Shown here one piece after another: positions 6,060 through 35,273 of a DNA stretch of 35,363 nucleotides. The first letter of the stretch is position 1, and each line of letters opens with the position of its first letter. The notes below the pieces were generated by a model. That model did not search any database. It saw only the letters and a program-made list of their open reading frames with translations, and was not told the origin of the DNA. The stretch is taken from the UHGV virus genome UHGV-0299546; one strand, 5' to 3'. The DNA comes from a virus. The position numbers and the translations under genes were made by a program.

Positions 6060-6065
6060 ATCACT

Positions 6066-10133: not shown

Positions 10134-10156
10134 TACAGCATAGATAAGGAGTATGT

Positions 10157-16664: not shown

Positions 16665-16687
16665 TAAGACAAAGGAGCAAATTTTTT

Positions 16688-17740: not shown

Positions 17741-17749
17741 TCAACTCAC

Positions 17750-17768
17750 GGCGGGCATCATGCCCGCC
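17750..17768 (+). other. Stable stem-loop between N and M
   Basis: GGCGGGCA-TCA-TGCCCGCC; no U-tract follows. Confidence 0.3.
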
Positions 17769-17785
17769 TGTAACGGAGAGAAAAA

Positions 17786-18586: not shown

Positions 18587-18687
18587 CGACTGACCCCGTC
18601 AGCGGGCGGCGTGCGCGGTGTTCCGGTTTGACTCCGTGACCGTTTACACCGCGCACCCACCGCCCGATTTTTTCAGGAGTGAACCCC

Positions 18688-19182: not shown

Positions 19183-19382
19183 TGAAAGTTAAGGCACTGG
19201 AAGGCGACACCGTGGATTCGCTCTGTTTCCGGTACTACGGCACGACGCAGGGCGTCACCGAAAAGGTGCTGGATGCCAACCCCGGACTCTGTCAGCAGGT
19301 ATTTCTGGACGCCGGGCAGGAAGTGGAGATGCCGGAGCCGGAGAAGAAGAAACGAGAAATGATTCAGTTGTGGGGGGAGTAG
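19182..19382 (+). CDS. X: Tail protein gpX
   Basis: MKVKALEGDTVDSLCFRYYG...ANPGL...LWGE resembles P2 X; start overlaps the L stop. Confidence 0.85.
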   Translation: MKVKALEGDTVDSLCFRYYGTTQGVTEKVLDANPGLCQQVFLDAGQEVEMPEPEKKKREMIQLWGE

Positions 19383-19384
19383 CA

Positions 19385-19708
19385 GTGAGCACCATTCAAA
19401 CAGGGATCACAGAGCAGGTTATTGCGTGGCTCTTTGACCACCTGCCAACGGTGTATGCAGTAGGCGCGGCGGTCAGCATTTCCGCGCTGATGAGTCTTTA
19501 TGACGGACGAACACTGGTTCAGACCGTAACGGGATCGCTGGCGTGCGGCGTTCTTGCCATGGCCGTGGCCGGGTCGTTGCGCTTCTTCGGGTTTCCTGAA
19601 GATGCCGTGACGTTTATCGGCGCATCAATCGGTTTTATGGGTGCAGAGAAAGCACGCGACAAGGTTATTGCGGCCTTTAATCGCAGGGTGAAGGAGAAGG
19701 ACGAATGA
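19385..19708 (+). CDS. Y: Holin (gpY-position)
   Basis: Hydrophobic 107-aa product with predicted transmembrane segments; GTG start with GGAG 6 nt upstream; precedes the endolysin. Confidence 0.65.
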   Translation: MSTIQTGITEQVIAWLFDHLPTVYAVGAAVSISALMSLYDGRTLVQTVTGSLACGVLAMAVAGSLRFFGFPEDAVTFIGASIGFMGAEKARDKVIAAFNRRVKEKDE

Positions 19709-20097
19709 GCAACACATTTAAATTCAGCAGCCGGAGCGAAAAGAATTTGCAGGGCGTAAATCCTGATCTGGTGAAAGTGACACGACGGGCACTGGAAATC
19801 TCGGAAGTGGATTTTGGTATCACCGAAGGGTTGCGCAGCCGTTACCGCCAGAAGCAACTGGTGGCCACGGGTAAGAGCCAGACCATGAACAGCCGCCACC
19901 TTACGGGGCATGCCGTGGATGTTGTGGCTTATATCGGCAGCCAGGTGTCATGGGAATGGCCGCTGTACGAAAAAATCGCTGCAGCATTCAGACAGGCCAG
20001 CCGGGAACTGAATATTCCGGTGGAATGGGGCGGCGACTGGAAGACCCTGAAAGACGGACCGCATTTTCAGTTACCACACGGAGCCTATCCGGCATGA
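19705..20097 (+). CDS. Endolysin, peptidase M15 family (not the T4-lysozyme type of P2 gpK)
   Basis: M15 zinc-peptidase motifs SRHLTGHAVD and WGGDW...DGPHFQL; sits between holin and spanins. Confidence 0.82.
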   Translation: MSNTFKFSSRSEKNLQGVNPDLVKVTRRALEISEVDFGITEGLRSRYRQKQLVATGKSQTMNSRHLTGHAVDVVAYIGSQVSWEWPLYEKIAAAFRQASRELNIPVEWGGDWKTLKDGPHFQLPHGAYPA

Positions 20098-20501
20098 AGC
20101 TCTGGCCCACGCTGGGCGTCGCTTTCCTTCTGATTGCCGCATGGGGAACATCCATGCGTCTGTCGTGGTCGCTGGGCCGGGAGAACGCCAGAAACGAAGC
20201 GCAGGCCAGCGCCCTGAAAAGTACCGTCGACACACTGAATATCATCAGTGCCGGGGTACAGGATATGCAGCAGGTGCTGGCGCAACTCCGCGTGGAAAAT
20301 CAACAGCGAAATCAGGACGGAGAGGCCAGACGTGAACAGCTACGCAACGATATTGCAAAAGATGAATGCGCCCACGCTTTGCCTGACGCTCGTTTTACTG
20401 ACAGGTTGCGCAGGCACGCAGAACGCGCCACGGCCAGCGCCGTCAGTCCGGCTTATACCGCAGACGCTGACCATCCCGGTAACGCCGCCCCCCTTCCCTG
20501 A
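20094..20501 (+). CDS. lysB: LysB / Rz-like inner-membrane spanin
   Basis: N-terminal transmembrane segment MKLWPTLGVAFLLIAAW, then a charged helical region; ATG overlaps the endolysin stop. Confidence 0.7.
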   Translation: MKLWPTLGVAFLLIAAWGTSMRLSWSLGRENARNEAQASALKSTVDTLNIISAGVQDMQQVLAQLRVENQQRNQDGEARREQLRNDIAKDECAHALPDARFTDRLRRHAERATASAVSPAYTADADHPGNAAPLP

Positions 20502-20652
20502 CCCTCCCACATGGGGAAATCTCGGTATATGGGGCGACCGCCTTCTGGATGCACTGGAAACCTGTAACGCGGATAAACGGGCCATTGAATTACTGGAACA
20601 GCGCAGGCTGCAACGACTGAACAACGAGGACAACAACCATGCTGAAAACTGA
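20362..20652 (+). CDS. lysC: LysC / Rz1-like outer-membrane lipoprotein spanin
   Basis: MNAPTLCLTLVLLTGCAG lipobox, proline-rich; +1 frame overlapping the 3' part of lysB. Confidence 0.65.
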   Translation: MNAPTLCLTLVLLTGCAGTQNAPRPAPSVRLIPQTLTIPVTPPPFPDPPTWGNLGIWGDRLLDALETCNADKRAIELLEQRRLQRLNNEDNNHAEN

Positions 20653-21106
20653 TTCCCTGCGTGAAGCCATGACCCGTTCATGCCGATGGTGTCAGGCCAA
20701 CCCGGAAAAATTCACCATTTTCGTGGAGAGCGGCAACATTGAAACGACCGGAGAAACGCCCTCGTTTGTTTACCGCTATCAGATGGTGATGTTTGTCATG
20801 GATTACGCCGGGGAGCTGGACGACCTCACGCTGCCGCTACTGGCGTGGTTATCCGAAAATCAGCCGCAATTGTTGCTCAATCCGGAGCGTAATCAGGACA
20901 TCAAATTCTCCGCCGTTATCAATGACGATGACAGCGCCGATCTCCTGTTTACGCTCCCTCTGCGGGAACGCGTTCGCATCACGCGCAGCAGTCAGGGGAC
21001 ACCGCAGGCAGAACACCTGCCGGAGCCAAAACCCCGTCTGCCATCTTCCGAAGGCGACTGGTCGCATGTATTCCAGGATGTGACGTGGGGTGAAAGCGAT
21101 GGATAA
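20639..21106 (+). CDS. R: Tail completion protein gpR
   Basis: 155 aa; MLK.DSLR...LAWL.ENQP resembles P2 R. Confidence 0.85.
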   Translation: MLKTDSLREAMTRSCRWCQANPEKFTIFVESGNIETTGETPSFVYRYQMVMFVMDYAGELDDLTLPLLAWLSENQPQLLLNPERNQDIKFSAVINDDDSADLLFTLPLRERVRITRSSQGTPQAEHLPEPKPRLPSSEGDWSHVFQDVTWGESDG

Positions 21107-21734
21107 GGCATTCACCCGCGTGGATGAAACCTTTGAGGCTATCCGCGACAGCCTGAATCAGCAGGCCATCAATAACATCGCCAGAAAGCTGGCACAGGAT
21201 TTACGTCGCGCCCAGCAGGCACGTATCCGGTCACAGAAAGCGCCGGACGGGACTGCATGGACACCACGCAGACGCCGCGTAACCCGGATACAGGAGCGTA
21301 TTCGCTTTATCTGGAATAACGAAGCACGCACGCTGAAAAACTGGCATCACGACACGGGGAAATACGGGCGAACCATCACCGGGTGGGATGAGGATAAAAA
21401 CAGCATCCGCACGTTTTACCGGGATGACATCGACCGCTTTCTGGAAATACGCACCCGGCGCATCAACCAGGACAGCACAAAGCGCGTCCCCATGTTCGTA
21501 AAACTGCGCACCGCCCGCTACCTGAAAGCCCGTGCAGATGCTTCCGGTGTGACGGTGGGTTACAGCGGCGTGGCCGCACGTATTGCACGCGTTCATCAGT
21601 TCGGTGAGCGCGATCAGGTTGCGCCGGGCATTTTCACCGATTACCCGGTACGTGAGCTGTTGGGCATCAGTCAGGCAGATGAACGCCTGATTTATAACAC
21701 GGTGCTGGGCCGGATTGCGGAGGCTGTACGGTGA
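21099..21734 (+). CDS. S: Tail completion / virion morphogenesis protein gpS
   Basis: Assigned by position between R and V; ATG 21099 overlaps the R stop. Confidence 0.7.
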   Translation: MDKAFTRVDETFEAIRDSLNQQAINNIARKLAQDLRRAQQARIRSQKAPDGTAWTPRRRRVTRIQERIRFIWNNEARTLKNWHHDTGKYGRTITGWDEDKNSIRTFYRDDIDRFLEIRTRRINQDSTKRVPMFVKLRTARYLKARADASGVTVGYSGVAARIARVHQFGERDQVAPGIFTDYPVRELLGISQADERLIYNTVLGRIAEAVR

Positions 21735-22312
21735 GCGCAGAACTCATGCGACTGCTGAGCAATATCATCCGCACCGGGATCATCTCTGAAGTTGATGAGA
21801 AGTCCTGGCGCGTGCGCGTTCGCAGCGGCGAACTGGAAACAGGCTGGTTGCGCTGGAACACCACGCGCGCGGGAGCCTTCAATGTGTGGCTGCCGCCATC
21901 ACCAGGCGAACAGGTGGTAATTGCCTGCATTGGCGGCAACCCGGAAACCGCCATGATAATTGGCAGCCTGTGGAGTGATGCCAGTCCGGCACCCGGCAAA
22001 AGCCTGAAAGAAATCGTGATCAGCGCGCCGGACGGCGCGGTGTTCCGCTACGACGCGGACGCAGGCGCACTGAGCGCCAGCGGCATGAAAACGGCCACTT
22101 TACAGGCATCCGTCAGCGTGAAACTGGATACGCCCGTCGTGGAATGCACAAACCTTCTGAGAACGGCGACGCTTGACGTCACAAAAGGAGGAAAGATGAG
22201 CGGCAATATCACGCACAGCGGCGGCAACTTCACCTCAAACGGCATTACCGTGCATACGCATAAACACGGTGGCGTGAAAGGCGGCAGCGATTCGACAGGA
22301 GGCCCGCAGTGA
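21731..22312 (+). CDS. V: Baseplate spike protein gpV
   Basis: C-terminal GNITHSGG...SNG..VHTHKH..GG resembles P2 V. Confidence 0.9.
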   Translation: MSAELMRLLSNIIRTGIISEVDEKSWRVRVRSGELETGWLRWNTTRAGAFNVWLPPSPGEQVVIACIGGNPETAMIIGSLWSDASPAPGKSLKEIVISAPDGAVFRYDADAGALSASGMKTATLQASVSVKLDTPVVECTNLLRTATLDVTKGGKMSGNITHSGGNFTSNGITVHTHKHGGVKGGSDSTGGPQ

Positions 22313-22659
22313 CAACCCGCTACACAGGAATGAATCCGGACGGGACGGGAAACCTGAACGATATGGAGCACCTGAAACAGTCAGTCAGGGACATCCTGAC
22401 CACCCCGCTGGCAAGCCGGGTTATGCGACGGGAATATGGCAGCCTTGTGCCTGATTTGATTGACGAACCCATGAATAACACCACGCGTCTGCAATGCATG
22501 AGTGCTGCCGTGATTGCGCTGACACGATGGGAACCCCGCATTGCCCTGGATGCCATCGACGTTGTCTGGAAAGCGGGAGGCCGCGCCGGGGTGACGCTGT
22601 CGGGCACTGTCATGCAGACCATGCAGAATGTTGAATTAACCATCACGCTAAGGGAGTAA
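22309..22659 (+). CDS. W: Baseplate protein gpW
   Basis: MTTRYTGMN...RVMRREYGSL...WEPR resembles P2 W. Confidence 0.9.
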   Translation: MTTRYTGMNPDGTGNLNDMEHLKQSVRDILTTPLASRVMRREYGSLVPDLIDEPMNNTTRLQCMSAAVIALTRWEPRIALDAIDVVWKAGGRAGVTLSGTVMQTMQNVELTITLRE

Positions 22660-22662
22660 ATC

Positions 22663-23559
22663 ATGCCCGCCGTTGACCTTTCACAGTTACCGGACCCCGC
22701 CATCATCGCGGAGCCTGACTTTGAGGCAATTCTGGCTGACACAAAGGCCATGATGATTGCGGCTTATCCCGCCGAACAGCGTGAAGCCGTTTCCGCCGCG
22801 CTGGAGCTGGAATCGGAACCCCTTAACGTTATCGCTCAAACCATGTCGTTTCGTGAAATGCTGTTACGCCAGCGGGTTAACGAGGGTGCACGCGCCTGCA
22901 TGTTAAGCCACAGCGCCGGGACAGACCTGGACAACCTCGCGGGCAATATGAACACAAAGCGCCTGGTTATCACTCCGGCAACGGATACCACCGACGCGGT
23001 GATGGAAAGCGACACCTCGCTGAGACTGCGGGCGCAACGGGCGTACGACGGCCTGAGTGTTGCTGGCCCGTCAGGTGCATACGAGTATTTTGCCCGCAGC
23101 GCCAGCGGTCTGGTGCGTGATGCGCGGGCTATCAGTCCGTCTCCGGCAAATGTGACGGTTTCCATCCTGTCCACTGAAGGCGACGGCACAGCAACGGAGG
23201 CGTTGCTTAATACCGTTCGCGCCGTTCTGAATGCAGAGGATACCCGCCCGGTGGCCGACCGCCTGACCGTACAGAGTGCCAGAATCGTGACATGGCGGCT
23301 GAATGCAAAACTGTACTTTTACCCCGGCCCGGAATCCGAACCTATTCTGGCTGCGGCGGAATCGTCGTTCAGGAAGTGGCTGGCTGAGCAGGGGCTTATC
23401 GGTCAGGACGTGGCGTTGTCCGCCATTGCTGCCGCACTGCATGTGCACGGTGTGCAACGCGTGGAGATAATCGAACCCACACAGAATATGGCCATCAGCG
23501 ACATACAGGCGGCGCGCTGTGAGTCGTTCACCATCAGCGAAGGTGGGCGCAATGAGTAA
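22663..23559 (+). CDS. J: Baseplate protein gpJ
   Basis: 298 aa, in P2 J position. Confidence 0.88.
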   Translation: MPAVDLSQLPDPAIIAEPDFEAILADTKAMMIAAYPAEQREAVSAALELESEPLNVIAQTMSFREMLLRQRVNEGARACMLSHSAGTDLDNLAGNMNTKRLVITPATDTTDAVMESDTSLRLRAQRAYDGLSVAGPSGAYEYFARSASGLVRDARAISPSPANVTVSILSTEGDGTATEALLNTVRAVLNAEDTRPVADRLTVQSARIVTWRLNAKLYFYPGPESEPILAAAESSFRKWLAEQGLIGQDVALSAIAAALHVHGVQRVEIIEPTQNMAISDIQAARCESFTISEGGRNE

Positions 23560-24082
23560 TTCACTGTTACCGCCATCAGCCAGCAGTTTCATGCGTTGTG
23601 CCGAAGCTGTCGGAACGCGCATTACAGACATCCCGGTAGACCTCAACACACTGTGGTCGCCGGATACCTGCCCGGTGCATCTGCTGCCTTATCTCGCCTG
23701 GGCATTTTCCGTTGACCGCTGGGATCGCAACTGGCCGGAAGAGACAAAGCGACAGGTTATTCGTGATGCATGGCTGATACACCGACACAAAGGGACCATC
23801 AGCGCACTGCGCAGGGCCATTGAACCACTGGGATACCTCATTCGCGTGTCTGAGTGGTGGGAGTTCGGCGGAGAACCGGGAACATTTACCGTTGAAGTCG
23901 GCACGCTGGACAGTGGCGTGACGGAGGAAATGTATCTGGAAATGGAGCGGTTGATTGCTGATGCCCGCCCGGTCAGCCGCCACATGACAGGGCTGAATAT
24001 CATTCAGGAGATTCAGGGAGATATTTTCGCGGCGGCAGCAACTTACGACGGCGAAGTCATTACCATTTATCCAGGCGATTAA
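23552..24082 (+). CDS. I: Baseplate protein gpI
   Basis: ATG 23552 (MSNSLLPP...) overlaps the J stop. Confidence 0.82.
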   Translation: MSNSLLPPSASSFMRCAEAVGTRITDIPVDLNTLWSPDTCPVHLLPYLAWAFSVDRWDRNWPEETKRQVIRDAWLIHRHKGTISALRRAIEPLGYLIRVSEWWEFGGEPGTFTVEVGTLDSGVTEEMYLEMERLIADARPVSRHMTGLNIIQEIQGDIFAAAATYDGEVITIYPGD

Positions 24083-24084
24083 GT

Positions 24085-26256
24085 ATGAGTACCACAACAC
24101 GAAAATTTAAAACCGTTATCACCGATACGGGTGCAAAAAAATTAGCTCAGGCAGCCGCGCCAGATGGTAAGCCTGTCCGCCTGACTCATATGGCCGTGGG
24201 CGACGGTGGCGGCACGTTGCCCACACCAGACAGTAAGCAGACCCGTCTGGTGCATGAGGTGTGGCGACACACTGTTAATCGCGTCATCCTGGACGCAACA
24301 CATCAGAACCGCATTATTGCGGAGCTGGTTATTCCTCCTGAAACGGGCGGATTCTGGATCCGGGAAATTGGTGTATTTGATGAGCACGGCGATTTAATCG
24401 CGGTGGGCAATACTGCCGAAAGTTACAAACCAACCGTTGCCGAAGGGTCCGGACGTGCACAAACATTTCGCACCATTCTGACCGTATCCAGCACTGCCAC
24501 CGTGGCGCTTACCGTGGATAACACCATGGTGATGGCCACAGTGGATTACGTGGATGACAAACTGAAAGAGCATGAACAGTCACGACGTCACCCGGATGCC
24601 TCGCTGACCGCAAAAGGCTTTGTTCAACTCAGTAGCGCCACTAACAGCGATTCTGAAACGCTGGCTGCAACGCCGAAAGCGGTTAAGGCCGCGTATGACC
24701 TGGCTAACGGAAAATATACCGCTCAGGACGCCACGACGGCACGAAAAGGGATAGTCCAGCTCAGCAGTGCAACCAACAGCACGTCTGAAACGCTGGCAGC
24801 GACACCAAAAGCTGTTAAGGCGGTAATGGATGAAACGAACAAGAAAGCGCCCTTAAACAGTCCTGCGCTGACCGGAACACCAACAACACCAACTGCGCCA
24901 AAAGGTACTAACAATACTCAGATCGCAAGCACGGCTTATGTTATGGCTGCGATCGCTGCCCTCGTGGACTCGTCGCCTGACGCACTGAATACGCTGAACG
25001 AGCTGGCTGCGGCGTTGGGCAACGACCCGAATTTTGCGACCACCATGACTAACGCGCTTGCGGGTAAGCAACCGAAAGATGCCACCCTGACGGCGCTGGC
25101 CGGGCTTGCTACTGCGGCAGACAGGTTTCCGTATTTTACGGGGAATGATGTTGCCAGCTTGGCAACCCTGACAAAAGTTGGGCGGGATATTCTTGCGAAA
25201 TCGACCGTTGCCGCCGTTATCGAATACCTCGGTTTACAGGAAACGGTAAACAAGGCTGGTAACGCCGTTCAGCGTTCCGGCGATAAAATGACCGGAGAAC
25301 TGAAAATTGGCACGATGAATGCGCTGCGAATTTTTAATGATGCCTTCGGTCTTATTTTCCGTCGTTCAGAAGAGTACCTTCATTTCATCCCTACGGCTGA
25401 AGGACAAGGCGAAAACGGTGATATCGGCCCATTAAGGCCATTCGCTATAAATCTGAGAACAGGTGCTATATCTGTCAGCCACGGGGCCAAAATTGATGGT
25501 GGGCTGGCGCTTGGTACAGATAACGCACTGGGCGGTAATTCCATTACTCTCGGAGATAACGACACTGGTATTAAACAGGGCGGCGACGGTGTCCTTTTAT
25601 TCTATTCAAATGGACAACTGGCATTTGGGCTTCAACCCGCATCTGCTGATTTTTATAAGCGGGTTGCATATATTCATCAGGGAATAATTCCTGATGGAAG
25701 TGGCGCATTTGCAGACCAGTTGAATAATGCCACCGCGCCTTTTGTTCAGACGCAGTTTGCCTGGAATCCCACTCCTGGTGGTCATTACGTGCCGATAGTT
25801 AAGGGCTTGTCCATTCGCAATGGACAGGGCTATCCCGGCGCGGTCAGCTTTGGGTATTTACTGACAGAACAGTATGGATTTCCGGTTCCATGTATTCATA
25901 TGCGTGGCGATGGCGGTAATGATGCTTTATGGCAGTTTAACCCGAACGATAAATCCTTTATTTCACCGGGTGCTCTTATTGCGGGTGGCGTCCATTATAA
26001 CACCGATGGAAATATATTTGGTGGGTGCTGGGGTTCAAACTTAAATGATTACCTGAATAGTTCTTTTATCAGAAATGTGCGTCTGGGAGGCAGACGTTCT
26101 GACGTATTATATCGCGGAGGACTTTGCGAACCAGGTAATGGTCATGTGACAACAGGATTGCAAATTATTGGTGAGGTTGATGGAGATGACTGGATGGTGT
26201 CACGACCACTACAAAAATACATTTCTGGTAACTGGTATAACGTTGAACAGGCATAG
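24085..26256 (+). CDS. H: Tail fibre protein gpH
   Basis: 723 aa; conserved P2 H-like N-terminus; internal phage tail-fibre repeats; variable C-terminal receptor-binding region. Confidence 0.9.
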   Translation: MSTTTRKFKTVITDTGAKKLAQAAAPDGKPVRLTHMAVGDGGGTLPTPDSKQTRLVHEVWRHTVNRVILDATHQNRIIAELVIPPETGGFWIREIGVFDEHGDLIAVGNTAESYKPTVAEGSGRAQTFRTILTVSSTATVALTVDNTMVMATVDYVDDKLKEHEQSRRHPDASLTAKGFVQLSSATNSDSETLAATPKAVKAAYDLANGKYTAQDATTARKGIVQLSSATNSTSETLAATPKAVKAVMDETNKKAPLNSPALTGTPTTPTAPKGTNNTQIASTAYVMAAIAALVDSSPDALNTLNELAAALGNDPNFATTMTNALAGKQPKDATLTALAGLATAADRFPYFTGNDVASLATLTKVGRDILAKSTVAAVIEYLGLQETVNKAGNAVQRSGDKMTGELKIGTMNALRIFNDAFGLIFRRSEEYLHFIPTAEGQGENGDIGPLRPFAINLRTGAISVSHGAKIDGGLALGTDNALGGNSITLGDNDTGIKQGGDGVLLFYSNGQLAFGLQPASADFYKRVAYIHQGIIPDGSGAFADQLNNATAPFVQTQFAWNPTPGGHYVPIVKGLSIRNGQGYPGAVSFGYLLTEQYGFPVPCIHMRGDGGNDALWQFNPNDKSFISPGALIAGGVHYNTDGNIFGGCWGSNLNDYLNSSFIRNVRLGGRRSDVLYRGGLCEPGNGHVTTGLQIIGEVDGDDWMVSRPLQKYISGNWYNVEQA
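24613..24825 (+). repeat. Intragenic tandem repeat in H, two ~44-aa units
   Basis: GFVQLSSATNSDSETLAATPKAVKA and GIVQLSSATNSTSETLAATPKAVKA, 132 bp apart. Confidence 0.6.
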
Positions 26257-26271
26257 CCATCAGGAGAATAT

Positions 26272-26799
26272 ATGCAACATCTGAAAAATATTACCGCCGG
26301 AAACCCCAAAACCATTGAGCAGTATCAGCTTACGAAAAAAGCTGGCGTTATCTGGCTATATACAGAAGACGGTAAAAACTGGTATGACGAATTAAAAAAC
26401 TTTCAGGATGATACTTTAAAAATAGCTTATGACCAGAAGGGGATTATTCGTTGTATTGAGAAAGACGTATCAATGCTTAACCCTGACGGGTTAAGTGTTG
26501 TTGAGTTACCGAATATAACAGCCAACCGTCGCGCCGATATCTCGGGAAACTGGAAGTTTCTGGATGGTAAAGTAGTAAAGCGGGAATATACAAAACAGGA
26601 ACTGCAACAGCAGGCAGAGTTACAAAAAGCCGCTTTGCTTTCCGAAGCGGAGTCTGTGATTCAACCGCTGGAACGTGCTGTCAGACTGAATATGGCAACT
26701 GATGAGGAACGCACACGACTGGAATCATGGGAACGCTACAGCGTTATGGTCAGCCGTGTGGATACTGCAAAGCCTGAATGGCCACAGAAACCAAAATAA
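26272..26799 (+). CDS. G: Tail fibre assembly chaperone gpG
   Basis: 175 aa following H; AGGAG RBS. Confidence 0.85.
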
Positions 26800-26808
26800 C
26801 AACAAATT

Positions 26809-26830
26809 AAGGCCCGTACGGGCCTTTTCT
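26809..26830 (+). terminator. Intrinsic terminator after the tail fibre operon
   Basis: AAGGCCCG-TA-CGGGCCTT followed by TTCTT. Confidence 0.6.
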
Positions 26831-26862
26831 TATTCTGGTGGTTCCGGGAATGTTACAGGAAG

Positions 26863-27018
26863 AACCAAATAGCAAGGCTGATCAAAAACGGTCATGACAG
26901 GAAACAACTGGCGATCATTTACGACATCGGCATATCGACGATTTATCGTTATCACCCTGTAGGCGATATACAGGCTGAAGAAACAACCAGGCAGACTCAG
27001 GAAAATGAAAACCGCTAA
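26863..27018 (+). pseudogene. C-terminal fragment of a serine DNA invertase (Hin/Gin/Pin family), no start codon
   Basis: Frame reads ...NQIARLIKNGHDRKQLAIIYDIGISTIYRYHPVGD...*, resembling the HTH domain of Hin; no ATG/GTG/TTG start (the frame opens at the G stop codon) and no catalytic domain. Confidence 0.5.
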
Positions 27019-27035
27019 TCTGACCATTAGCGGTT
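27005..27035. terminator. Bidirectional hairpin between the invertase remnant and the end of U
   Basis: AAACCGCTAAT-CTGACC-ATTAGCGGTTT with T-rich flanks on both strands. Confidence 0.5.
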
Positions 27036-27044
27036 TTGCGTTAA

Positions 27045-27539
27045 TCAAAACAGCCCTTTAACGGAGCTGGCCGCGCTGTTAAGGGATGATGTGACCTTAT
27101 CTTTGAAGCCGGACAGCATATCACTGAACGATGAGGATTGCAGGCGCTCCCGCAAATCCTCATCACAGCGTTCAAGGGTCAGTGAAAATTCTATCTTTTT
27201 CGCCTTACCGTAGCGATCAAACTCGGAGCGGGTCGTATTCGTTTCAGTCAGTACATACATGCCGTAAATCTGCCCGACACCATCAATCAGAGGCCAGGGG
27301 CGTCCTGTATATGCCTGCGTGGTCAGCAACGAAAGCGACACTTCGCCACCTGTAATTTCAGGATAAAGCACACCAGAAAGAACGATGCGATCATCACCTG
27401 CACCGATATACTGCCAGCTTGCTGAACGGTTAACGCGTTCATTTTTCACATGCCGCCAGCTTTTGTTTTGCTGTAACTGCTGATGCGGCAGCGTGCGCAG
27501 CTCAAAAACAAACATGCCGTAGATCATCATCATGACCAT
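27045..27539 (-). CDS. U: Tail protein gpU
   Basis: 164 aa, P2 U-like by position and length; start among a run of Met codons is uncertain. Confidence 0.85.
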   Translation of the reverse strand: MVMMMIYGMFVFELRTLPHQQLQQNKSWRHVKNERVNRSASWQYIGAGDDRIVLSGVLYPEITGGEVSLSLLTTQAYTGRPWPLIDGVGQIYGMYVLTETNTTRSEFDRYGKAKKIEFSLTLERCDEDLRERLQSSSFSDMLSGFKDKVTSSLNSAASSVKGLF

Positions 27540-27545
27540 GACTCC

Positions 27546-30362
27546 TCAATCTTTATCGTAAAAACTGCCACGCCCGGCACGGGCGCGCCGTTCCATTTCT
27601 GCCCTGACCATTTCACCGACCAGTTTCGCCAGTTCGCGGGGATTCTGTGTAACAACGTTATGCAGATGAACATGAATTTCACCGCCAAATCCGGAGGCAA
27701 CAGGCTCCCGGTTACGGGAAGTTGCAGGAACTGATGCCACTGGAGATCGTATGGCCTCTGCCACCGGGCGGGAGCTGGCCGCAACAACAGGGACCAGCGC
27801 CGGAGGCAGCGGAGCCGGAACCACAGGTGTGATATTAATTGCGGGGGCAGGCTTACTGACCTGCGCAATCTTCCGCTCCTGCCACTCCCCACGAACGGCA
27901 AGTGCGCGGGGCAGGTTCTTAAAGACAATATCGCCGGGGCCAATACGTTTTTTCGTCTCATCAACCAGCTTACCTGTGTTATCAGCAATTTTGCTGAGTC
28001 TGCGTAGCGTACCGGTATTGCTGTCTGTGAGCGGTTTATTGTCTTTGGTTTTATCACCTCCGGTGCCATTGCCATTTTCCGCAGACTTCGGCGGATTGAT
28101 TTTCGCAATGTCTCCCTGAAACAGAGCAACCTTGTCCTGAAGAATGGCCGCACGCTGTGCGTCTTCGATTTTCTTTCTCGCCCTTTCCGCTTCATCCGGA
28201 AGCACACCGAGTTTTTCAAGTATCCACGCCAGCGTATCCAGCAACATTTTTGCGGGCGTCAGAACAAGCTGTAACGCACCGCCAAGAACGTTACCGAATA
28301 TCTCGCCAGCACTGGTACATTTATCCAGCGTTTCCTTGCTGGACTCCATCGGTGACAGCAGCGATTTAAACCAGTTAAACACCTGACTTATCCCGCTTCC
28401 GATTGCGTCAAAAACAGGACCAAACCGTTCAAAGGTTTCGCGTAACGGGGCCAGCCGCTCCATAATCCCGCTGAACACCCCGGCATAAAACGCCTTGATG
28501 GGTTCCCAGTATTTCCAGATGAGAACTGCCGCAGCCACAAACGCAGCAGCAATCAATCCGACCGGGCTGAACAGCGCCCCGATAGCGCCCCCCAGTAACG
28601 AAACGGAACCCGTCACCATTCCCCATAGTGCTGGCAGGAGCCTGACAGCATTCATTGATCCGGTCAGGAGAGAAAAACCAAGACGCAACGTGGCCAGCTT
28701 CCCGTGAAGCACTCCAATAACCAGCGACAACGAGCCAACCGTTGCAGTCATTGCCAGCAGCGCACCGCCTGCTATCAGTAACTGGCGCGTCAGTACCGGA
28801 TGGGCCTGTGCCAGCGCCGTCACCTTTGAGACCACCCGCGTGAGCCACTGCGTGACAGAACGCAGCGGACCATCAATCAGATCTGCAATGCGGATACGCA
28901 GCCCTTCCCATGCACTGCCGAGTGATTTCAGGTCGCCATCAAGGTTATTGGCCATAACCTTTGCCGTGCGTTCAGCCTCACCGCGTGCGCCCTCAAGTTC
29001 TTTTCTCAGTTTGGGCAGGGAGCCGTCACCCGCCGCATCAACGAGAGCCATAAACGACGTGAAAGCCTCTTCCCCGGCAATGTCCTTAAAGAACGATACC
29101 CGGTCAACTTCCCCGTATTTACGGGTGGCTTTATAAAGGTCGGCCAGCACATCTTCCATCGGGCGCATTTTGCCGTTCGCATCAGAGACGGACACACCCA
29201 GCTCTTTCAGCGCTTCTGCTGCCGCCTTTGGCGGTGATGCCAGACGAGCCAGGCTGGCACGCATTGCCGTCCCGGCATCACTCCCTCTGATACCCATATT
29301 CGCCAGCACGCCCGCCATCGCTGCGGCCTGCTCCAGCGATATTCCCAGCTTACCCGCCACCGGACCTGCATATTTCATGGTTTCGCCCAGTGCGCGAAGG
29401 TCAGTGTTAGTACGGGTAAACACTGCTGTAAGCGTGTCACCGACCCGGTCCATCTGGTCAGCGGAGAGGCCGAACTGCGTCAGGATATTTGAGCCAATAT
29501 CTGCCGTCTCGCCAAGGTCCATACCGCCAGCCGTTGCCATGCTCAGCACGCCGGGAAGCGCAGCCTGAATGGCCTGCGGTGTGAAGCCAGCCATTGCCAG
29601 AAATGCCTGCCCACTGGCGGCATCGCCTGCGGTGAACTGCGTTTCAGAGCCAAGTTTTAACGCCTGCTCACGCAGCGCCTTAAACTGCGGGCTGTTTTTG
29701 TCGATTCGCGTCAGTGCCTGAACGCGGGACATCTCTTTCCCGAACCCGATCGCAGGCTGCAAAAAACGCCCGGCAGCATAGCTGCCAGCCGCTGTCGCAC
29801 CAATTGCCAGCGCACCACCTGTTTTCAGTTTTCCCGCGGTTTCCTGCGCGCGCGAATACCGCTCACGCGCACGTGTTACACGCGCAAGCGCCTGCCGTTC
29901 GCGTTCAAGCTGGTTGTTGTACTGTTCGGTGCGTCTGATGGCCTGCTGGATGGTGTTATCGCTGCCTGTCAGGGAAATGCCGTGGCGTTTCAGCTCTCCG
30001 CCAAGCTCCCGCATTTTCTGAATTTCCCGTGTACGCGATTCATTCAGGCGTTCAAGCCGGGTGCTTAACTGCTGCATCAGCTTTTGTTGTTTTTCGCTGA
30101 GCACTGTACCCGTGCGTTGTAACTGATTAAGGGCGTTAAGCTGGCGTCGTGCTTTCACGATGCCCGCATCCGCTTTACTGACAGCGTCACGGGCGCGCTC
30201 AAATGAACGCGCCTGACGCTCGAGATTTTTGATCGCCCCCTGCGTTCGCTGGATGGAGTCACCAAACTGCCCCATCAGGCGGCGGGCGTTTTCGGCAGGC
30301 CGGGTCAGCCTGTCAACGGCGCTGAAAGCGACCCGGATATCAAGAGTCTTCATTGTCTGCAT
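27546..30362 (-). CDS. T: Tail tape measure protein gpT
   Basis: ~940 aa, Ala/Gly-rich with coiled-coil N-terminus and hydrophobic central region; start set at ATG 30362 (GTG 30389 or ATG 30353 possible); overlaps the end of E'. Confidence 0.9.
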   Translation of the reverse strand: MQTMKTLDIRVAFSAVDRLTRPAENARRLMGQFGDSIQRTQGAIKNLERQARSFERARDAVSKADAGIVKARRQLNALNQLQRTGTVLSEKQQKLMQQLSTRLERLNESRTREIQKMRELGGELKRHGISLTGSDNTIQQAIRRTEQYNNQLERERQALARVTRARERYSRAQETAGKLKTGGALAIGATAAGSYAAGRFLQPAIGFGKEMSRVQALTRIDKNSPQFKALREQALKLGSETQFTAGDAASGQAFLAMAGFTPQAIQAALPGVLSMATAGGMDLGETADIGSNILTQFGLSADQMDRVGDTLTAVFTRTNTDLRALGETMKYAGPVAGKLGISLEQAAAMAGVLANMGIRGSDAGTAMRASLARLASPPKAAAEALKELGVSVSDANGKMRPMEDVLADLYKATRKYGEVDRVSFFKDIAGEEAFTSFMALVDAAGDGSLPKLRKELEGARGEAERTAKVMANNLDGDLKSLGSAWEGLRIRIADLIDGPLRSVTQWLTRVVSKVTALAQAHPVLTRQLLIAGGALLAMTATVGSLSLVIGVLHGKLATLRLGFSLLTGSMNAVRLLPALWGMVTGSVSLLGGAIGALFSPVGLIAAAFVAAAVLIWKYWEPIKAFYAGVFSGIMERLAPLRETFERFGPVFDAIGSGISQVFNWFKSLLSPMESSKETLDKCTSAGEIFGNVLGGALQLVLTPAKMLLDTLAWILEKLGVLPDEAERARKKIEDAQRAAILQDKVALFQGDIAKINPPKSAENGNGTGGDKTKDNKPLTDSNTGTLRRLSKIADNTGKLVDETKKRIGPGDIVFKNLPRALAVRGEWQERKIAQVSKPAPAINITPVVPAPLPPALVPVVAASSRPVAEAIRSPVASVPATSRNREPVASGFGGEIHVHLHNVVTQNPRELAKLVGEMVRAEMERRARAGRGSFYDKD

Positions 30363-30869
30363 TCCCGCTGCGAAGTGCCGCCCGCTCACGCCAGCTAACC
30401 ACTTCGCCGGGCGTCATCATGAAGATTTCGGCGGGCGACCAGTTAAAAATAACGGCAATATCTGCCACAAAGTCTTCTATGTGCTCAAAGCACACAACCG
30501 TGATCAGGCTTCCGTCGCCTGTTCGTTCTTCCCGCCAGAGTCCGCACCGCTCAAAAAATTTACGGCAACCACACATAACTGAATAAAGTCACAGGATGCC
30601 ATTTTTTTGATCGTCACTTCATCCAGTCGCGGTGATGTCACGCGTGACAGCAGCGTAAACATGGATTCCGCTTTCAGATTCAGCACATCAGACAGCGACA
30701 AATCTCGCAGAGATCCAGCCTGCTCAATAGCTCCGGTGATCTCCACATACGTGATTTTTTCGCCGCTTCGCTCAATTGGTTGGGTAAGTTTTACGCCACG
30801 CTCACTGGTTTCTTTCACAGTGTCAGCAACGACCGTGTTTTCGTTATCGATGTTTTTCGTCTCTTTCAT
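30340..30869 (-). CDS. gpE+E' fusion made by programmed -1 ribosomal frameshift (about 175 aa)
   Basis: The E frame contains the heptamer T_TTT_TTG (minus strand, 30558 to 30552); the -1 frame is open from there to the stop at 30340; same arrangement as lambda G/GT and P2 E/E'. Confidence 0.6.
30504..30869 (-). CDS. E: Tail assembly chaperone gpE
   Basis: VTSPRLDE...FLSG resembles P2 E. Confidence 0.85.
   Translation of the reverse strand: MKETKNIDNENTVVADTVKETSERGVKLTQPIERSGEKITYVEITGAIEQAGSLRDLSLSDVLNLKAESMFTLLSRVTSPRLDEVTIKKMASCDFIQLCVVAVNFLSGADSGGKNEQATEA
30552..30558 (-). other. Slippery heptamer T_TTT_TTG for the E to E' -1 frameshift
   Basis: Hand-translated: zero frame ...V N F L S G..., -1 frame ...F F E R C G L W... 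Confidence 0.6.
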
Positions 30870-30923
30870 CAGGAAACTCCTTTCAGTCAGAGGCGACGCA
30901 CTGCGCCGCCTGCATATTACTTA

Positions 30924-31436
30924 TCAGCCAAGCCCAAGCGCGGAACGGATGCGATCGGGCACAATGTCCTTGCCGTCCTTCCGGTAAATGAAGTTCAGCA
31001 GGTCAATCTCCCACAACGGGCGATCGTTAACACTCAGCTTGTAGTAGGTGTTTTTAATGGCGTAAGTGTGTGATGTGGCTTCGCCCTGTTTGGCTTCCCC
31101 CATATCAATTTCCGTCACACGTCCGCGCATTTCGACTTCATACAGGTCGCTTTCTGCATCGGTGTAGTATTCACCCGCAAAACGCAGCAGCGTGCCGTCA
31201 ATCGTGCCGCCATACTTAAGGAACAGCTCACGAACTGCGCCCCCCATGACAAAGCTCGCATCAAGCGCGGAGTCGTCCAGACCGAGATCAATACTTACCG
31301 CACCCATCATGCCGCCCCCCCGGTAGCTGTCGGTTTTGCGCGTCAGTTTGGGCAGAGTGACGGACGTCACCTTACCCACTTCGTTTTCACCATCCACAAA
31401 CAGCGTAAAAAAGCGAAGATGTTTTGGCACAGCCAT
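30924..31436 (-). CDS. FII: Tail tube protein gpFII
   Basis: 170 aa, P2 FII-like by length and position. Confidence 0.92.
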   Translation of the reverse strand: MAVPKHLRFFTLFVDGENEVGKVTSVTLPKLTRKTDSYRGGGMMGAVSIDLGLDDSALDASFVMGGAVRELFLKYGGTIDGTLLRFAGEYYTDAESDLYEVEMRGRVTEIDMGEAKQGEATSHTYAIKNTYYKLSVNDRPLWEIDLLNFIYRKDGKDIVPDRIRSALGLG

Positions 31437-32620
31437 CAGGCACCTCCCAGCACCGCAAATGCGGGTTCAAAGTATTCATCAGTAAACGTCTGGTAAAGCT
31501 CCATGTCTTCCAGTGGCGGAACGGGCGTATATTTGTAGCGAATACGCACACGCCCCTGACGTAAATCCGTGGTGCTGTTATCCACCACGTCATACCAGCA
31601 CTCCGCACCAATCAGTTTCCCGGCAGTAACCAGTGAATCCAGTTTTGCCCTGATGGCACTGATAACATCCTTCACGTTCGCAGGCGTCAGTGGACTGTCG
31701 ATGGTTTCAAACTGCGCTTCCGCAATTGAATCAGCCAGCACCTGTGCGGTTCGGGTATACACCTCAAAGATGTAGGCGTTCGTTTCCGGTGTGCGGTTGC
31801 CCCAGAAGCGGAACCCGTTGCGACGAATAATGGTCGTGATTTCTTTGTTGTTAAGGCTGTTGGCATCACTGTCTTCGGCCTGCAACGACCAGAACACATG
31901 CCTGGACATCCCCAGCACATTTTTAACCGGAACGTTGGACAGCGATTTGTGCCAGCCCTGCTCATGGTCAATGTACGCACGAAGGCCGCACGCATAGGCA
32001 GGCGCGGGGAACGTTTCGTTTTTGCCACTTTTCGGGTTGTAGGCGATGAAGTCCGGCCATAAGAGCATCACCTCACGTTCGTTGAATTTCTGGCGGTAGG
32101 TAATCGCCTCAGCCATCGTGTTACAGCCGTGACATGAGGCATACACAAACGCGCGCAGTTTACCCGCAATCACGCACAGGGATTTTGTTACCGCCTCCGT
32201 GTCCAGCTCCGGCGCGGCCAGAATACGCGGACGGTATCCGATGCTTTCATCCTGCTCTGCAACAAGCAGCGCATACATCCCCGTATAGCTGCCGTCAGAT
32301 TCAGAACCACCGATAACCAGTTGATCCTGCGTTTTTCCGTCTTCTTCTTTGTGTTCAGCCACGCGAACGACGATCACCTTTGTGCTCACCTGGTCTGCGA
32401 TGGCCTTAAGCGCACGATAAAGCGTCCCCGTTGTCCCGCATTTTCCCAGCACGTCATTGACGCGGGTCAGCAGTGTGGGCTTGTTCAGCGGGAACAGCTT
32501 CGCGTCCGCATCATCCGCCGTTGCCACGATACCGATAACGCTGGAATCAACATCGTTAATCGCTGTTACCAGGTCGGTATTTTCCGTAACACGGGCACCA
32601 TGAAAACGAGTTTCACTCAT
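31436..32620 (-). CDS. FI: Tail sheath protein gpFI
   Basis: 394 aa; resembles P2 FI in several blocks (FPLNKP, KLRAF, WPDF, QGWHK.LSNV, RRNGFRFWGNRT, YTRTAQV, YTPVPPLE). Confidence 0.95.
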   Translation of the reverse strand: MSETRFHGARVTENTDLVTAINDVDSSVIGIVATADDADAKLFPLNKPTLLTRVNDVLGKCGTTGTLYRALKAIADQVSTKVIVVRVAEHKEEDGKTQDQLVIGGSESDGSYTGMYALLVAEQDESIGYRPRILAAPELDTEAVTKSLCVIAGKLRAFVYASCHGCNTMAEAITYRQKFNEREVMLLWPDFIAYNPKSGKNETFPAPAYACGLRAYIDHEQGWHKSLSNVPVKNVLGMSRHVFWSLQAEDSDANSLNNKEITTIIRRNGFRFWGNRTPETNAYIFEVYTRTAQVLADSIAEAQFETIDSPLTPANVKDVISAIRAKLDSLVTAGKLIGAECWYDVVDNSTTDLRQGRVRIRYKYTPVPPLEDMELYQTFTDEYFEPAFAVLGGA

Positions 32621-32777
32621 AGCTTCAGCCCCTTGTATCCGTTAAATGATTCGGCAACAATCATCACCCACCACGCGCGCAATCTCACCCCTGCGCCATT
32701 CTCCCGCCACGGCGACAACAAAAAGCAGTAACCCCCTCCGCACGCACATGCGACCATGCCACACAGGGAGGGAGCAG

Positions 32778-33887
32778 ATGACCGACACCACCATGCAATT
32801 GCTCAGTCAGGGCACAGACCCCGTGAAAATGCCGGATTTTGATATTCTCGCGGAGGGTAAAACGCTGTCAGGCGTGGCAGAACGCCTGATGAGCCTGTCA
32901 CTGACCGACAACCGGGGATTTGAGGCGGACCAGCTCACCATCATGCTGGATGATGCGGATGGTCAGTTGCAGCTACCGCAACGGGGCGCGCGCCTGACGG
33001 TTCTCATTGGCTGGAAGGGAGAACCGCTGACAGAAAAAGGCACTTACATTGTTGATGAAATCGCTCACGAAGGACCGCCGGACAGGCTGACTGTTTCAGC
33101 CAGAAGCGCAGATTTTCGGGATGAATTTAACGTTAAACGTGAGGTGTCCTGGCATGATGTGACCGTTGAGCGTGTGGTATCCGCCATCGCTCATCGGTAT
33201 GGTCTGAAACCGCAAATCAGCGAAATGCTGATGGATATCGAAATCGACCACGCCGACCAGACCGAAGAAAGCGACATGTCCTTCCTTACGCGCATGGCGG
33301 AAATGCTGGGCGCAATCACCACGGTAAAAAGCGGCAATCTGTTATTCATCATGCCAGGTGGTGGCGTGAACGCACAGGGCCAGCCGTTGCCCTCGTTCGC
33401 CATTACACGCAGCAGCGGCGATCGCCATCAGTTCCGCATTGCTGACCGCGAAGCGTATACGGGGGTACGCGCCTACTGGCTTGATCTTAATTACGGGAAA
33501 AAGAAAAAAGTCAGCGTGAAACGCCGTAAACCGCCAAAACCCAAAAAGGAGAAAAGCAGCAGCCGTGAAGGTGATTATATGGAAGGCGCGGAAGGCAATG
33601 TGTTTGTGTTACGCAAGACTTATCAGAACGAGCAGGCAGCAAGACGCGCAGCGGCGGCAAAGTGGCAGCAACTACAACGCGGAGCCGCATCATTCTCCAT
33701 CACGCTGGCGCGTGGACGTGCAGAACTCTACCCCGAAATGCATGGCACGGTAACAGGATTTAAAAGCGAGATTGATAATCAGGACTGGATCATTGCAAAA
33801 GCCGAGCACACCATTGATAACAGCGGCTTTACCACGCAGCTTGAGCTTGAGGCAAAAATCCCGGAATGGATAGCGGAAACAGAGTGA
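32778..33887 (+). CDS. D: Tail protein gpD
   Basis: ATG 32778 with GGGAGGGAG RBS; P2 D-like by length and position. Confidence 0.88.
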   Translation: MTDTTMQLLSQGTDPVKMPDFDILAEGKTLSGVAERLMSLSLTDNRGFEADQLTIMLDDADGQLQLPQRGARLTVLIGWKGEPLTEKGTYIVDEIAHEGPPDRLTVSARSADFRDEFNVKREVSWHDVTVERVVSAIAHRYGLKPQISEMLMDIEIDHADQTEESDMSFLTRMAEMLGAITTVKSGNLLFIMPGGGVNAQGQPLPSFAITRSSGDRHQFRIADREAYTGVRAYWLDLNYGKKKKVSVKRRKPPKPKKEKSSSREGDYMEGAEGNVFVLRKTYQNEQAARRAAAAKWQQLQRGAASFSITLARGRAELYPEMHGTVTGFKSEIDNQDWIIAKAEHTIDNSGFTTQLELEAKIPEWIAETE

Positions 33888-33929: not shown

Positions 33930-34190
33930 ATGTTCCGTTGTCCGCTTTGTGGCGCATCTGCCCGTATCCGCACCAGTCGTCCGGAAAATGATTCAAACAC
34001 CGTGCGGCAAAAGTATTACCAGTGTAACAATCTGGAATGCGGCGTATGCTTCTCAACACTGGAAGCTTTCCATAAATTCACATCAAAACACGCCTCCGGC
34101 GTTCACTCATCAGAAGGTATCCCGTGGCATGATCTGCCAGCTTCACACAGGGGAAACAATCAGATGAGTTTGCCTTTATCTCAGAATTAA
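33930..34190 (+). CDS. ogr: Late transcription activator, Ogr/Delta zinc-finger family
   Basis: MFRCPLCGASARIRTSR...YYQCNNLECGVCF resembles P2 Ogr, including the four Cys ligands. Confidence 0.88.
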   Translation: MFRCPLCGASARIRTSRPENDSNTVRQKYYQCNNLECGVCFSTLEAFHKFTSKHASGVHSSEGIPWHDLPASHRGNNQMSLPLSQN

Positions 34191-34250: not shown

Positions 34251-34463
34251 ATGGTCGGAGGGAATACCCGAAGGCCGGATGTGGAAAGGCCCCGGAAAAC
34301 ATATCTGTTTAACCGAGGCCCTAACCGCATTACCTTGACAAGTGAAAGGTTAGCGCCTCTCCGGAAAAGGAGCAAGTGCTATGTCGCAAAAATCGCTTAC
34401 GGCCATCACGTTCTGCGTGACGGCAATCCTCATCATCTGGATGCTGCACGGTTCGCTGTGTGA
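34251..34463 (+). CDS. mok-like overlapping reading frame (70 aa)
   Basis: ORF starting upstream of, and overlapping, the hok-like gene in another frame, as in hok/mok/sok loci. Confidence 0.35.
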   Translation: MVGGNTRRPDVERPRKTYLFNRGPNRITLTSERLAPLRKRSKCYVAKIAYGHHVLRDGNPHHLDAARFAV

Positions 34464-34521
34464 AATACGGATGAGTTTCTGGGGAGCGGAGTTTGCGGCG
34501 TTCTTACAGTGTAAGCAGTAA
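34381..34521 (+). CDS. hok: Hok/Gef-family type I toxin (46 aa)
   Basis: Hand-translated MSQKSLTAITFCVTAILIIWMLHGSLCEIRMSFWGAEFAAFLQCKQ: transmembrane helix, then SLCEI and AAFLxCK motifs as in HokA; AAGGAG RBS 7 nt upstream. Confidence 0.7.
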   Translation: MSQKSLTAITFCVTAILIIWMLHGSLCEIRMSFWGAEFAAFLQCKQ

Positions 34522-35243: not shown

Positions 35244-35273
35244 GCGCCACCCGAAGGTGGCGTGCTTTTATTA
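35244..35273 (+). terminator. Hairpin GCGCCACC-CGAA-GGTGGCG followed by a T-rich tract; contains the right copy of the 15-bp repeat (candidate attR core)
   Basis: Stem-loop 35244-35261, then TGCTTTTATTATT. Confidence 0.4.

Follow-up and report, generated by a model that had tools for sequence, protein, structure and literature searches.

A reversed sheath-to-U block is probably the standard architecture of a P88-like branch of P2-like phages

We analyzed a 35,363-nucleotide stretch of viral DNA (UHGV virus genome UHGV-0299546), which we will call the window. Its tail genes FI, FII, E/E', T, and U run leftward, while the late genes on both sides run rightward. We put the probability at roughly 85% that this reversed block is the normal arrangement in a large, monophyletic group of P2-like phages in the Enterobacterales, that it arose by one ancient inversion, and that the spacer between FI and D holds the divergent promoters that we predict below.

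Layout of the late tail genes

As judged from the strands of the open reading frames and from their PHROGs and Pfam identities, H and G are rightward, U-T-E/E'-FII-FI are leftward (27045-32620), and D and ogr are rightward again. The earlier note had described FI through U as being on the minus strand, with G and U converging and FI and D diverging, and the positions and strands of the open reading frames bear this out.

H (24085-26256, plus strand) is followed by the tail fiber assembly gene G (26272-26799, plus strand; phrog_136, E = 8e-77; 74% identical to P2 G). G closes the rightward late operon and converges on U. The minus-strand block comprises the tail protein U (27045-27539; Pfam Phage_P2_GpU, 133 bits; 46% identical to P2 U), the tape measure protein T (27546-30353; phrog_28, E = 3e-213), E (30504-30869; phrog_103), the tail tube protein FII (30924-31436; Pfam Phage_tube, 159.6 bits), and the tail sheath protein FI (31436-32620; phrog_23, E = 1e-127, with three Pfam sheath domains). 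For T, the start at 30353 follows the annotation of P88; the longest open reading frame for T begins at a GTG at 30389.

Reading the sequence directly, we found a slippery heptamer (TTTTTTG) at 30552-30558, and the E' frame is open to 30340. We predict that E+E' (30340-30869) is the product of a -1 frameshift at this heptamer. The frameshift heptamer of P2 is also TTTTTTG, and a -1 frameshift site is annotated in the E+E' of P2, so by sequence the window shares this arrangement.

On the plus strand, D (32778-33887) encodes the tail/baseplate hub protein (Pfam Phage_GPD; phrog_52, E = 4e-165). A 413-codon open reading frame that starts at 32646 was rejected as an alternative form of D: it would cross an indel-rich spacer that resembles non-coding DNA, and D of P88 is annotated from the equivalent of 32778. 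The late-gene activator ogr (33930-34190, plus strand) follows D after a gap of 42 bp and encodes a zinc finger protein (Pfam Ogr_Delta, 52.4 bits versus a cutoff of 26.3). Its cysteines are spaced as CX2CX24CX4C, versus CX2CX22CX4C in the Ogr of P2 (PMC3931495).

All of the P2-type late tail homologs (FI sheath, FII tube, E/E', T tape measure, U, and D) have PHROG or Pfam matches in the window, and the proteins are 32-49% identical to those of P2. In the reference record for P2, FI-FII-E-E'-T-U-D share a strand with V-G and are annotated as one F operon, transcribed from PF, so the earlier note described P2 correctly. Gene content and internal order are the same in the window, and P2 also has an Ogr-family activator gene after D. 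But the P2 operon is codirectional with V-G and includes D, whereas in the window FI-U is reversed and D, cut off from the F operon, is a separate unit.

Distribution and origin of the reversed block

Based on nucleotide identity and shared gene order, we classify the window as a P88-like prophage (Xuanwuvirus, Peduoviridae). It is 96-98% identical to P88 (Xuanwuvirus P88, NC_026014) over about 80% of its length, and the gene order and strands are the same: H and G (plus), U-T-E'-E-FII-FI (minus), and D (plus). The FI/D spacer of P88 is likewise 157 bp, with the same dyad (see below). The window lacks the alternative tail-fiber genes H'/G' and most of the invertase (P88 25449-27423), it has IetA/IetS cargo where P88 has ParM/partition genes, and the distal part of H differs. 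Apart from these differences in cargo and tail fibers, the two are fully colinear. The likeness extends to the P88 relatives P884B11, phiSM, 520873, 500465-2, PhiR44_2, and Chuche.

The same inverted block is found in phiT5282H (Novemvirus), 3LV2017 (Reginaelenavirus), and SEN5 (Senquatrovirus). More broadly, SEN4 and SEN5 (Senquatrovirus, from Salmonella), phiT5282H (from Enterobacter), 3LV2017 (from Klebsiella), and KSP20 (from Serratia) all have an inverted FI-U block facing away from D across a spacer that contains one dyad. These phages differ from the window in their hosts, in their sequences (65-73% nucleotide identity), in the length of the spacer (136-171 bp), and in the lack of an invertase where G meets U.

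FI, the spacer, and D form a single colinear match in 43 phage records. We surveyed 85 loci, from over 25 enterobacterial genera, that came from the best 80 of 429 matches, all of them in Enterobacterales; 64 of these loci were inverted and 20 were canonical. Among 5,426 complete E. coli genomes, 1,356 have a contiguous FI/D junction, and it is also present in closed chromosomes from other genera. A single orientation was seen in all 64 inverted loci and in all 1,356 of these E. coli genomes.

The earlier note had read the layout as an anomaly and had proposed a comparison with P2 and its relatives. That reading fails, as most of the relatives (64 of 85 loci, P88 itself, and the 1,356 E. coli genomes) share this arrangement. 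Could the inversion nevertheless be recent in this one genome, or be an artifact of assembly? The contrast with P2 might suggest so, as might the exact left junction with its truncated invertase, which is rare: it is covered to at least 80% in just one of the 5,426 complete E. coli genomes. However, the rarity of the left junction reflects a deletion within the tail-fiber cassette, not the inversion, while the FI/D junction is contiguous in so many E. coli genomes, and the layout recurs in P88, in at least eight other sequenced phages, and in closed chromosomes of other genera. We give this explanation virtually no chance. Because the layout is normal in P88 and in a large group of P2-like phages, it is ordinary and inherited, not a local rearrangement, and an assembly error is excluded.

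We next consider how the layout arose. On a simple neighbor-joining tree of D, which adjoins the breakpoint, the inverted loci were monophyletic (63 of 63) among the best 80 of 429 matches, all from Enterobacterales. In P2, phiCTX, and HP1, the tail genes are all on one strand. We propose one ancient inversion that became fixed, because the inverted loci form one clade and because the outgroups phiCTX and HP1 have the single-strand arrangement. The reversal of FI-U separates the branch that includes P88, SEN4, Novemvirus, and Reginaelenavirus from P2, the 186-type relatives, and phiCTX. The earlier note had proposed an inversion of ~5.6 kb relative to P2 that detached D; this stands as an old evolutionary event but not as a peculiarity of this genome, given that the layout is lineage-wide.

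A single ancient inversion would have run from just upstream of the late promoter PF, including its activator site, to the boundary between U and D. The inverted block would still be a complete F-type operon, starting from its own promoter, keeping the E/E' frameshift, and ending in a terminator downstream of U. D would have become a separate rightward unit, with ogr behind it.

Alternatively, recombination might have brought in a foreign sheath-to-U module, in the opposite orientation, that took the place of the original. Phage genomes are mosaic, and the tail-fiber region beside the block has clearly been exchanged between relatives. But the divergence of the block's proteins from P2 (32-46% identity) is in line with that of late proteins outside the block (36% for O, 42% for N, 44% for P, and 47% for Q and V), although it is slightly below the nearest flanks (49% for D and 54% for J). 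Also, the activator dyad is at about the distance from FI that is seen for PF in P2, and both the internal gene order and the E/E' frameshift are as in P2. We consider replacement by a foreign module to be unlikely, and we favor inversion of the resident genes.

We did not find an explicit description of the inverted block in the papers on P88 and phiSM, in the Myoviridae classification paper, in the literature retrieved with the genus names, or in the papers on the tailocins kosakonicin and xenorhabdicin. On the basis of the deposited annotated genomes, the layout is already known. In the paper on the Xenorhabdus tailocin (xenorhabdicin), the sheath gene is separated from the main tail-fiber gene fragment by a variable region, an order that we take to be canonical.

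For annotation and for genome scans, this means that the gene map of P2 cannot serve as the guide to the P88-like branch. About one in four complete E. coli genomes harbors a member of that branch, and finding its sheath-to-U genes inverted is not grounds for flagging a rearrangement or a misassembly.

The G/U junction and the invertase remnant

The convergent interval between G and U (26800-27044) contains two terminator-like hairpins and the remnant of an invertase. Directly after the stop codon of G, on the plus strand, is a hairpin with a T-run (26809-26836, with the hairpin at 26809-26826; AAGGCCCGTACGGGCCTT then TTCTTATTCT), which is also found in P88. On the minus strand, directly downstream of the stop codon of U, a second hairpin (26998-27037, with the hairpin at 27037-27008) has a 12-bp stem, AAAACCGCTAAT...ATTAGCGGTTTT, and it too is kept in P88. 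We predict that this second hairpin marks the end of the leftward FI-U operon.

No intact serine invertase adjoins the FI-U block. Just the C-terminal ~48 codons are present (26866-27009, plus strand; Pfam HTH_7, 35.2 bits). This remnant aligns to P88 27424-27564, which is the 3' end of the invertase gene of P88, and the preceding part of P88 (25449-27423) is absent from the window. The remnant is what is left of a degraded tail-fiber switching cassette.

The earlier note had linked the left junction to this remnant. One might suppose that a neighboring invertase of the Hin/Gin/Cin type inverted the block, or still switches it, by means of crossover sites at its ends; the remnant does lie at the left junction, and P88 has an intact invertase there. 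But Novemvirus, Reginaelenavirus, and Senquatrovirus share the inversion without any invertase at that junction. In P88, the two crossover sites (core AAACCTCGGTTTACAGGAAAC) bracket the H'/G' tail-fiber cassette and not the FI-U block. Scanning the window identified one crossover site, inside H (25224-25244); allowing 3 mismatches still gave no site close to 27045 or 32620. Furthermore, no inverted repeats bracket the block in the window, and the block points the same way in all 64 inverted loci. We judge that an invertase is very improbable as the cause, and that the truncated invertase lies at the left junction by chance. So, the note was correct that the remnant is at the junction, but a causal role for it is unsupported, given the three genera that are inverted without an invertase and the location of the sole site in H.

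The comparison to known invertible tail-fiber segments leads to the same distinction. The window resembles Mu (G segment), P1 (C segment), e14 (P segment), and P88 in having a crossover site in H and, by the junction, what remains of an invertase. Those systems flip a tail-fiber cassette of 1-4 kb between two inverted crossover sites. In contrast, the 5.6-kb FI-U block lacks such paired sites and has one orientation in every genome that we examined.

The earlier note had reported no long inverted repeats at the junctions, which agrees with our search, and had pointed to a shared 9-mer in inverted orientation (TTTAACGGA / TCCGTTAAA). The 9-mer is real, but it is at chance level: 12% of shuffled sequences had at least one such match. 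One copy is within the coding sequence of U, and it is not conserved in P88, where it reads TTTAACTGA. We therefore rejected the 9-mer as a recombination scar.

A proposed shared activator site between FI and D

The divergent control region between FI and D is 157 bp (32621-32777) and has conserved blocks across 61 unique spacers from the clade. It contains a P2-type activator (Ogr) dyad, TCT-N12-ACA, at 32700-32717 (center 32708.5), which is extended as ACAACAA to 32721. The late promoters of P2 have TGT-N12-ACA and depend on Ogr (PMC3931495). A search for perfect TGT-N12-ACA was empty in the late spacers of the window, but an alignment of 61 relatives revealed the TCT half-site, so we rejected the idea that the late spacers have no P2-type site. 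The TCT half-site (instead of TGT) is common to part of the clade.

Across the 35-kb window, there are just two perfect matches to T[CG]T-N12-ACAACAA, and both are in divergent late spacers: 32700-32721 and 15738-15759. The latter is in the spacer between P and O (terminase and scaffold), which is, by its sequence, a putative second late control region of the prophage. The P/O spacer has -10-like elements at 15698-15703 (minus strand) and 15791-15796 (plus strand), in the same register as those between FI and D, with the O side shifted by one base at most.

One such dyad was found in 55 of 60 unique spacers from the clade. From the center of the dyad to the ATG of FI, the median distance in the clade is 82.5 nt, which is the same as for PF in P2; the canonical relatives have 79.5-86.5 nt and the window has 88.5 nt.

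A fixed-register profile of the 61 unique spacers showed an xAxxAT pattern, similar to a -10 element, that is conserved at 44-49 nt from the center of the dyad on both sides. On the D side, a TG is also conserved at 41-42 nt from the center. In the window, we predict a -10 element for a leftward FI promoter (GATGAT, 32660-32665, minus strand), with a start near 32653, and an extended -10 element for a rightward D promoter (TGcGACCAT, 32749-32757, plus strand), with a start near 32764. The predicted leader of D is only ~14 nt. A generic sigma-70 scan found no consensus promoter in the FI/D spacer, which is as expected of promoters that depend on an activator.

A known counterpart is the PP/PO pair of P2, where a single activator site (center 3071.5) lies between starts at 3016 and 3127, or 55.5 nt to each side. 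The reference record lists those two positions as transcription start sites; in the window, the predicted starts are ~56 nt from the center of the dyad on both sides. The half-site is TGT in P2 and TCT in the window. We infer that the FI/D spacer is a bidirectional pair of Ogr-dependent promoters, like PP/PO. Under this model, one symmetric Ogr-binding dyad (32700-32717) would drive both units from ~55-56 bp upstream of each divergent start, which would be the same design as in PP/PO and in the prophage's own P/O spacer.

A competing model is that the dyad serves FI-U alone and D has its own promoter that does not require Ogr. Such a rightward promoter would be useful, as ogr is just downstream of D and is needed before the late genes. 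Also, the predicted D leader is very short and the -10 element on the D side (GACCAT) is weak in the window. But the TG and the xAxxAT on the D side are kept at a fixed register from the dyad across 61 unique spacers, the geometry of the D side mirrors that of PP/PO, the spacer has no sigma-70 consensus promoter, and gpD is a late structural protein in P2. Points against the shared dyad are the TCT half-site, the 88.5-nt distance to FI in place of the clade median, and the need of ogr for a promoter that is independent of Ogr; the sigma-70 scan gave no convincing candidate for the latter, as its hits outside the spacer, among them a possible ogr promoter at 33750-33779, were at chance level. 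We are doubtful of an independent promoter for D, without dismissing it, and we prefer the shared dyad. The FI/D spacer is a testable case of one Ogr site with two divergent late promoters.

If the shared dyad is correct, then PF may have been carried next to D by the inversion. We lean slightly towards a specific version of this scenario: PF and its symmetric Ogr dyad were moved before D, D gained a mirror-image -10 element, and the whole late regulon now relies on two bidirectional spacers (P/O and FI/D), with one activator site each and without a separate PV promoter. If true, the lineage would neatly illustrate, in nature, how a symmetric activator site can be put to a second use and so save a gene that was severed from its operon. 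The arrangement of the spacer points to a way in which D could have kept its late control once it was outside the operon. Among the canonical loci, the U/D junction matches even a relaxed form of the dyad pattern in only one.

Layout of the reversed tail genes

Using an ORF listing and profile searches, we placed H (24085-26256) and G (26272-26799) on the plus strand, U (27045-27539), T (27546-30353/30389), E (30504-30869), FII (30924-31436), and FI (31436-32620) on the minus strand, and D (32778-33887) and ogr (33930-34190) on the plus strand. This bears out the strand layout that was described in an earlier note on this sequence. The block from FI to U is a complete F-type tail operon. A TTTTTTG slippery site at 30552-30558 gives access to the E' frame; the slippery heptamer of P2 is also TTTTTTG. 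There is a strong hairpin terminator 3' of U (27037-27008, minus strand) and another hairpin terminator 3' of G (26809-26826, plus strand). The P2 reference record has FI-FII-E-E'-T-U-D as a single operon on the strand of V-G, so the gene order that the earlier note gives for P2 is correct. The block is a P2-type tail module that departs from its type only in lacking the canonical operon orientation.

Escherichia phage P88 (Xuanwuvirus, Peduoviridae) is colinear with ~80% of the window, at 96-98% nucleotide identity. The P88 annotation has the identical strand pattern, and its FI/D spacer is likewise 157 bp. The direct repeat CGCCACCCGAAGGTG... occurs at 183-202 and 35245-35264 (35,062 bp apart), and window position 184 corresponds to the first base of the P88 record. 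The prophage is probably bounded by these repeats, as its attL and attR cores. A small ORF of 46 amino acids (MSQKSLTAITFCVTAILIIWMLHGSLCEIR..., 34381-34521), to the right of ogr and short of the right prophage end, sits where the P88 annotation has a MokW-like/hok-gef host-killing protein. Also, replication gene A and portal gene Q are separated by a two-gene cargo of low GC content (~40%; 9012-12382). It matches IetA (AAA ATPase, E = 1e-77) and IetS (S8 protease, E = 7e-52), which form an anti-phage defence system. At this location, ParM and partition genes are found in P88; phiT5282H has an AAA ATPase and an S8 peptidase at the equivalent place.

Spread and origin of the reversed block

With FI, the spacer, and D as the query, 43 phage records matched as a single colinear piece. 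These included Novemvirus (phiT5282H), Reginaelenavirus (3LV2017), Senquatrovirus (SEN4/SEN5), and Serratia phage KSP20, at 65-73% identity. A contiguous FI/D junction is also present in 1,356 of 5,426 complete E. coli genomes. We then scanned one genome per species with a profile of the D protein and took the best 80 of 429 matches, all of which were from Enterobacterales. Local tblastn with the tail proteins was used to class each locus. Among the 85 loci (these best matches and the references), 64 were inverted, from over 25 genera of Enterobacterales, and 20 were canonical. Neighbour-joining analysis of D places the inverted loci in one clade (63/63) that includes no canonical locus.

In phiCTX and HP1, which are more distant relatives, a single strand carries all the tail genes, so the reversed state is derived. 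When P2 is the reference, the ~5.6-kb inversion proposed in the earlier note is real. It is, however, ancient and lineage-wide, not local: by the note's own criterion the reading as an anomaly fails, as P88 and most of the classed loci share the layout. We exclude both an assembly artefact and a recent event. Another explanation would be that a foreign module was imported. Compared with P2, the proteins of the block show 32-46% identity, in the same range as late proteins from elsewhere in the prophage (O 36%, N 42%, P 44%, Q 47%, V 47%) and a little lower than those of the nearest flanks (D 49%, J 54%). This range argues for inversion in place and against import. The simplest reading is a single ancient inversion that was fixed in the branch containing P88. 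The reversed block is already known as the architecture of P88 and related deposited genomes; our literature search found no explicit discussion of it, though it is plain in public annotations.

The same type of enterobacterial prophage (~94-98% identity) is found in a 226-kb contig labelled as a Firmicute (NZ_JBQPOM010000071.1, 'Vagococcus sp. WN89Y'). This is most likely contamination or mislabelling.

The invertase remnant

All that remains of a serine invertase is its C-terminal helix-turn-helix, encoded at 26866-27009. The earlier note pointed out that this remnant coincides with the left junction of the block. The crossover sites in P88 flank the H'/G' tail-fibre cassette, and the sole crossover site in the window lies inside H (25224-25244), with none near the ends of the block. 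As the earlier note had found for long inverted repeats at the junctions, no inverted repeats bracket the block, and the 9-mer shared by the junctions is a chance match. Moreover, the inversion is common to Novemvirus, Reginaelenavirus, and Senquatrovirus, all without any invertase. Given these three genera and the lack of repeats or crossover sites at the block's ends, the invertase is a neighbour of the inversion, not its cause. By every criterion, the block is not a site-specific invertible segment.

Compared with P88, ~2 kb is gone from the window (P88 25449-27423), and with it the alternative tail-fibre genes H' and G' and roughly three quarters of the invertase. This prophage has a frozen tail-fibre switch. 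A similar junction of G, remnant, and U was found in just 1 of the 5,426 complete E. coli genomes (90% identity).

A candidate shared activator site

The late promoters of P2 are Ogr-dependent and contain a TGT-N12-ACA dyad (PMC3931495). When 61 unique FI/D spacers of the clade were aligned, a conserved core emerged, which in the window is the dyad TCT-N12-ACAACAA (32700-32721). The core pattern has just one other perfect match in the window, at 15738-15759 within the divergent P/O (terminase/scaffold) spacer. A single T[GC]T-N12-ACA dyad is present in 55 of 60 unique spacers, and the median distance from its centre to the start of FI is 82.5 nt, the same as for the PF promoter of P2. The distance is 88.5 nt in the window and 79.5 to 86.5 nt in canonical relatives. 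At the U/D junction of canonical loci, only one has a match to the relaxed pattern.

A gap-free profile aligned on the centre of the dyad shows a -10-like xAxxAT conserved at positions 44-49 on both flanks; on the D side, TG is also conserved at positions 41-42, making an extended -10. From these elements, divergent starts are predicted ~56 nt to either side of the centre: FI-U transcription would start near 32653, and D transcription near 32764, with a short leader (~14 nt). The record for P2 places the PP and PO starts each 55.5 nt from one common activator site, and the window's P/O spacer has its -10 elements in the identical register, or displaced by one base on the O side. We propose that the inversion carried PF and its activator site with the block, which would have brought both in front of D, and that one symmetric Ogr site would drive both directions. 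Such shared control of FI-U and D, as suggested by these motifs, is a modest addition that can be tested. We looked for the Ogr-independent promoter that ogr requires and did not find one.

The window's Ogr homologue (33930-34190) has the zinc-finger spacing CX2CX24CX4C, instead of CX2CX22CX4C as in P2 (PMC3931495). The activator half-site is TCT in the P88-like and Novemvirus-like subgroups and TGT in the remaining clade. This hints that the activator and its site co-vary. The overlap of S and V (21090-22312) leaves no intergenic region between them and no equivalent of the PV promoter of P2. There is no activator dyad from 15800 to 26800, and O through G may be a single ~11-kb transcript. 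The 490 bp that separate the Iet cargo from the 3' end of Q contain a perfect TGT-N12-ACA dyad (12601-12618), which could be due to chance (~9 such sites are expected per window).

Three gene models at this locus are probable annotation slips: the window's longest ORF for D (start 32646, 413 amino acids), which would cross the promoter region; a 'hypothetical protein' in the P88 record (33155-33286) that overlaps the FI/D spacer; and FI in the phiT5282H record (5397-6623), which is annotated as 45 nt longer than its homologues.
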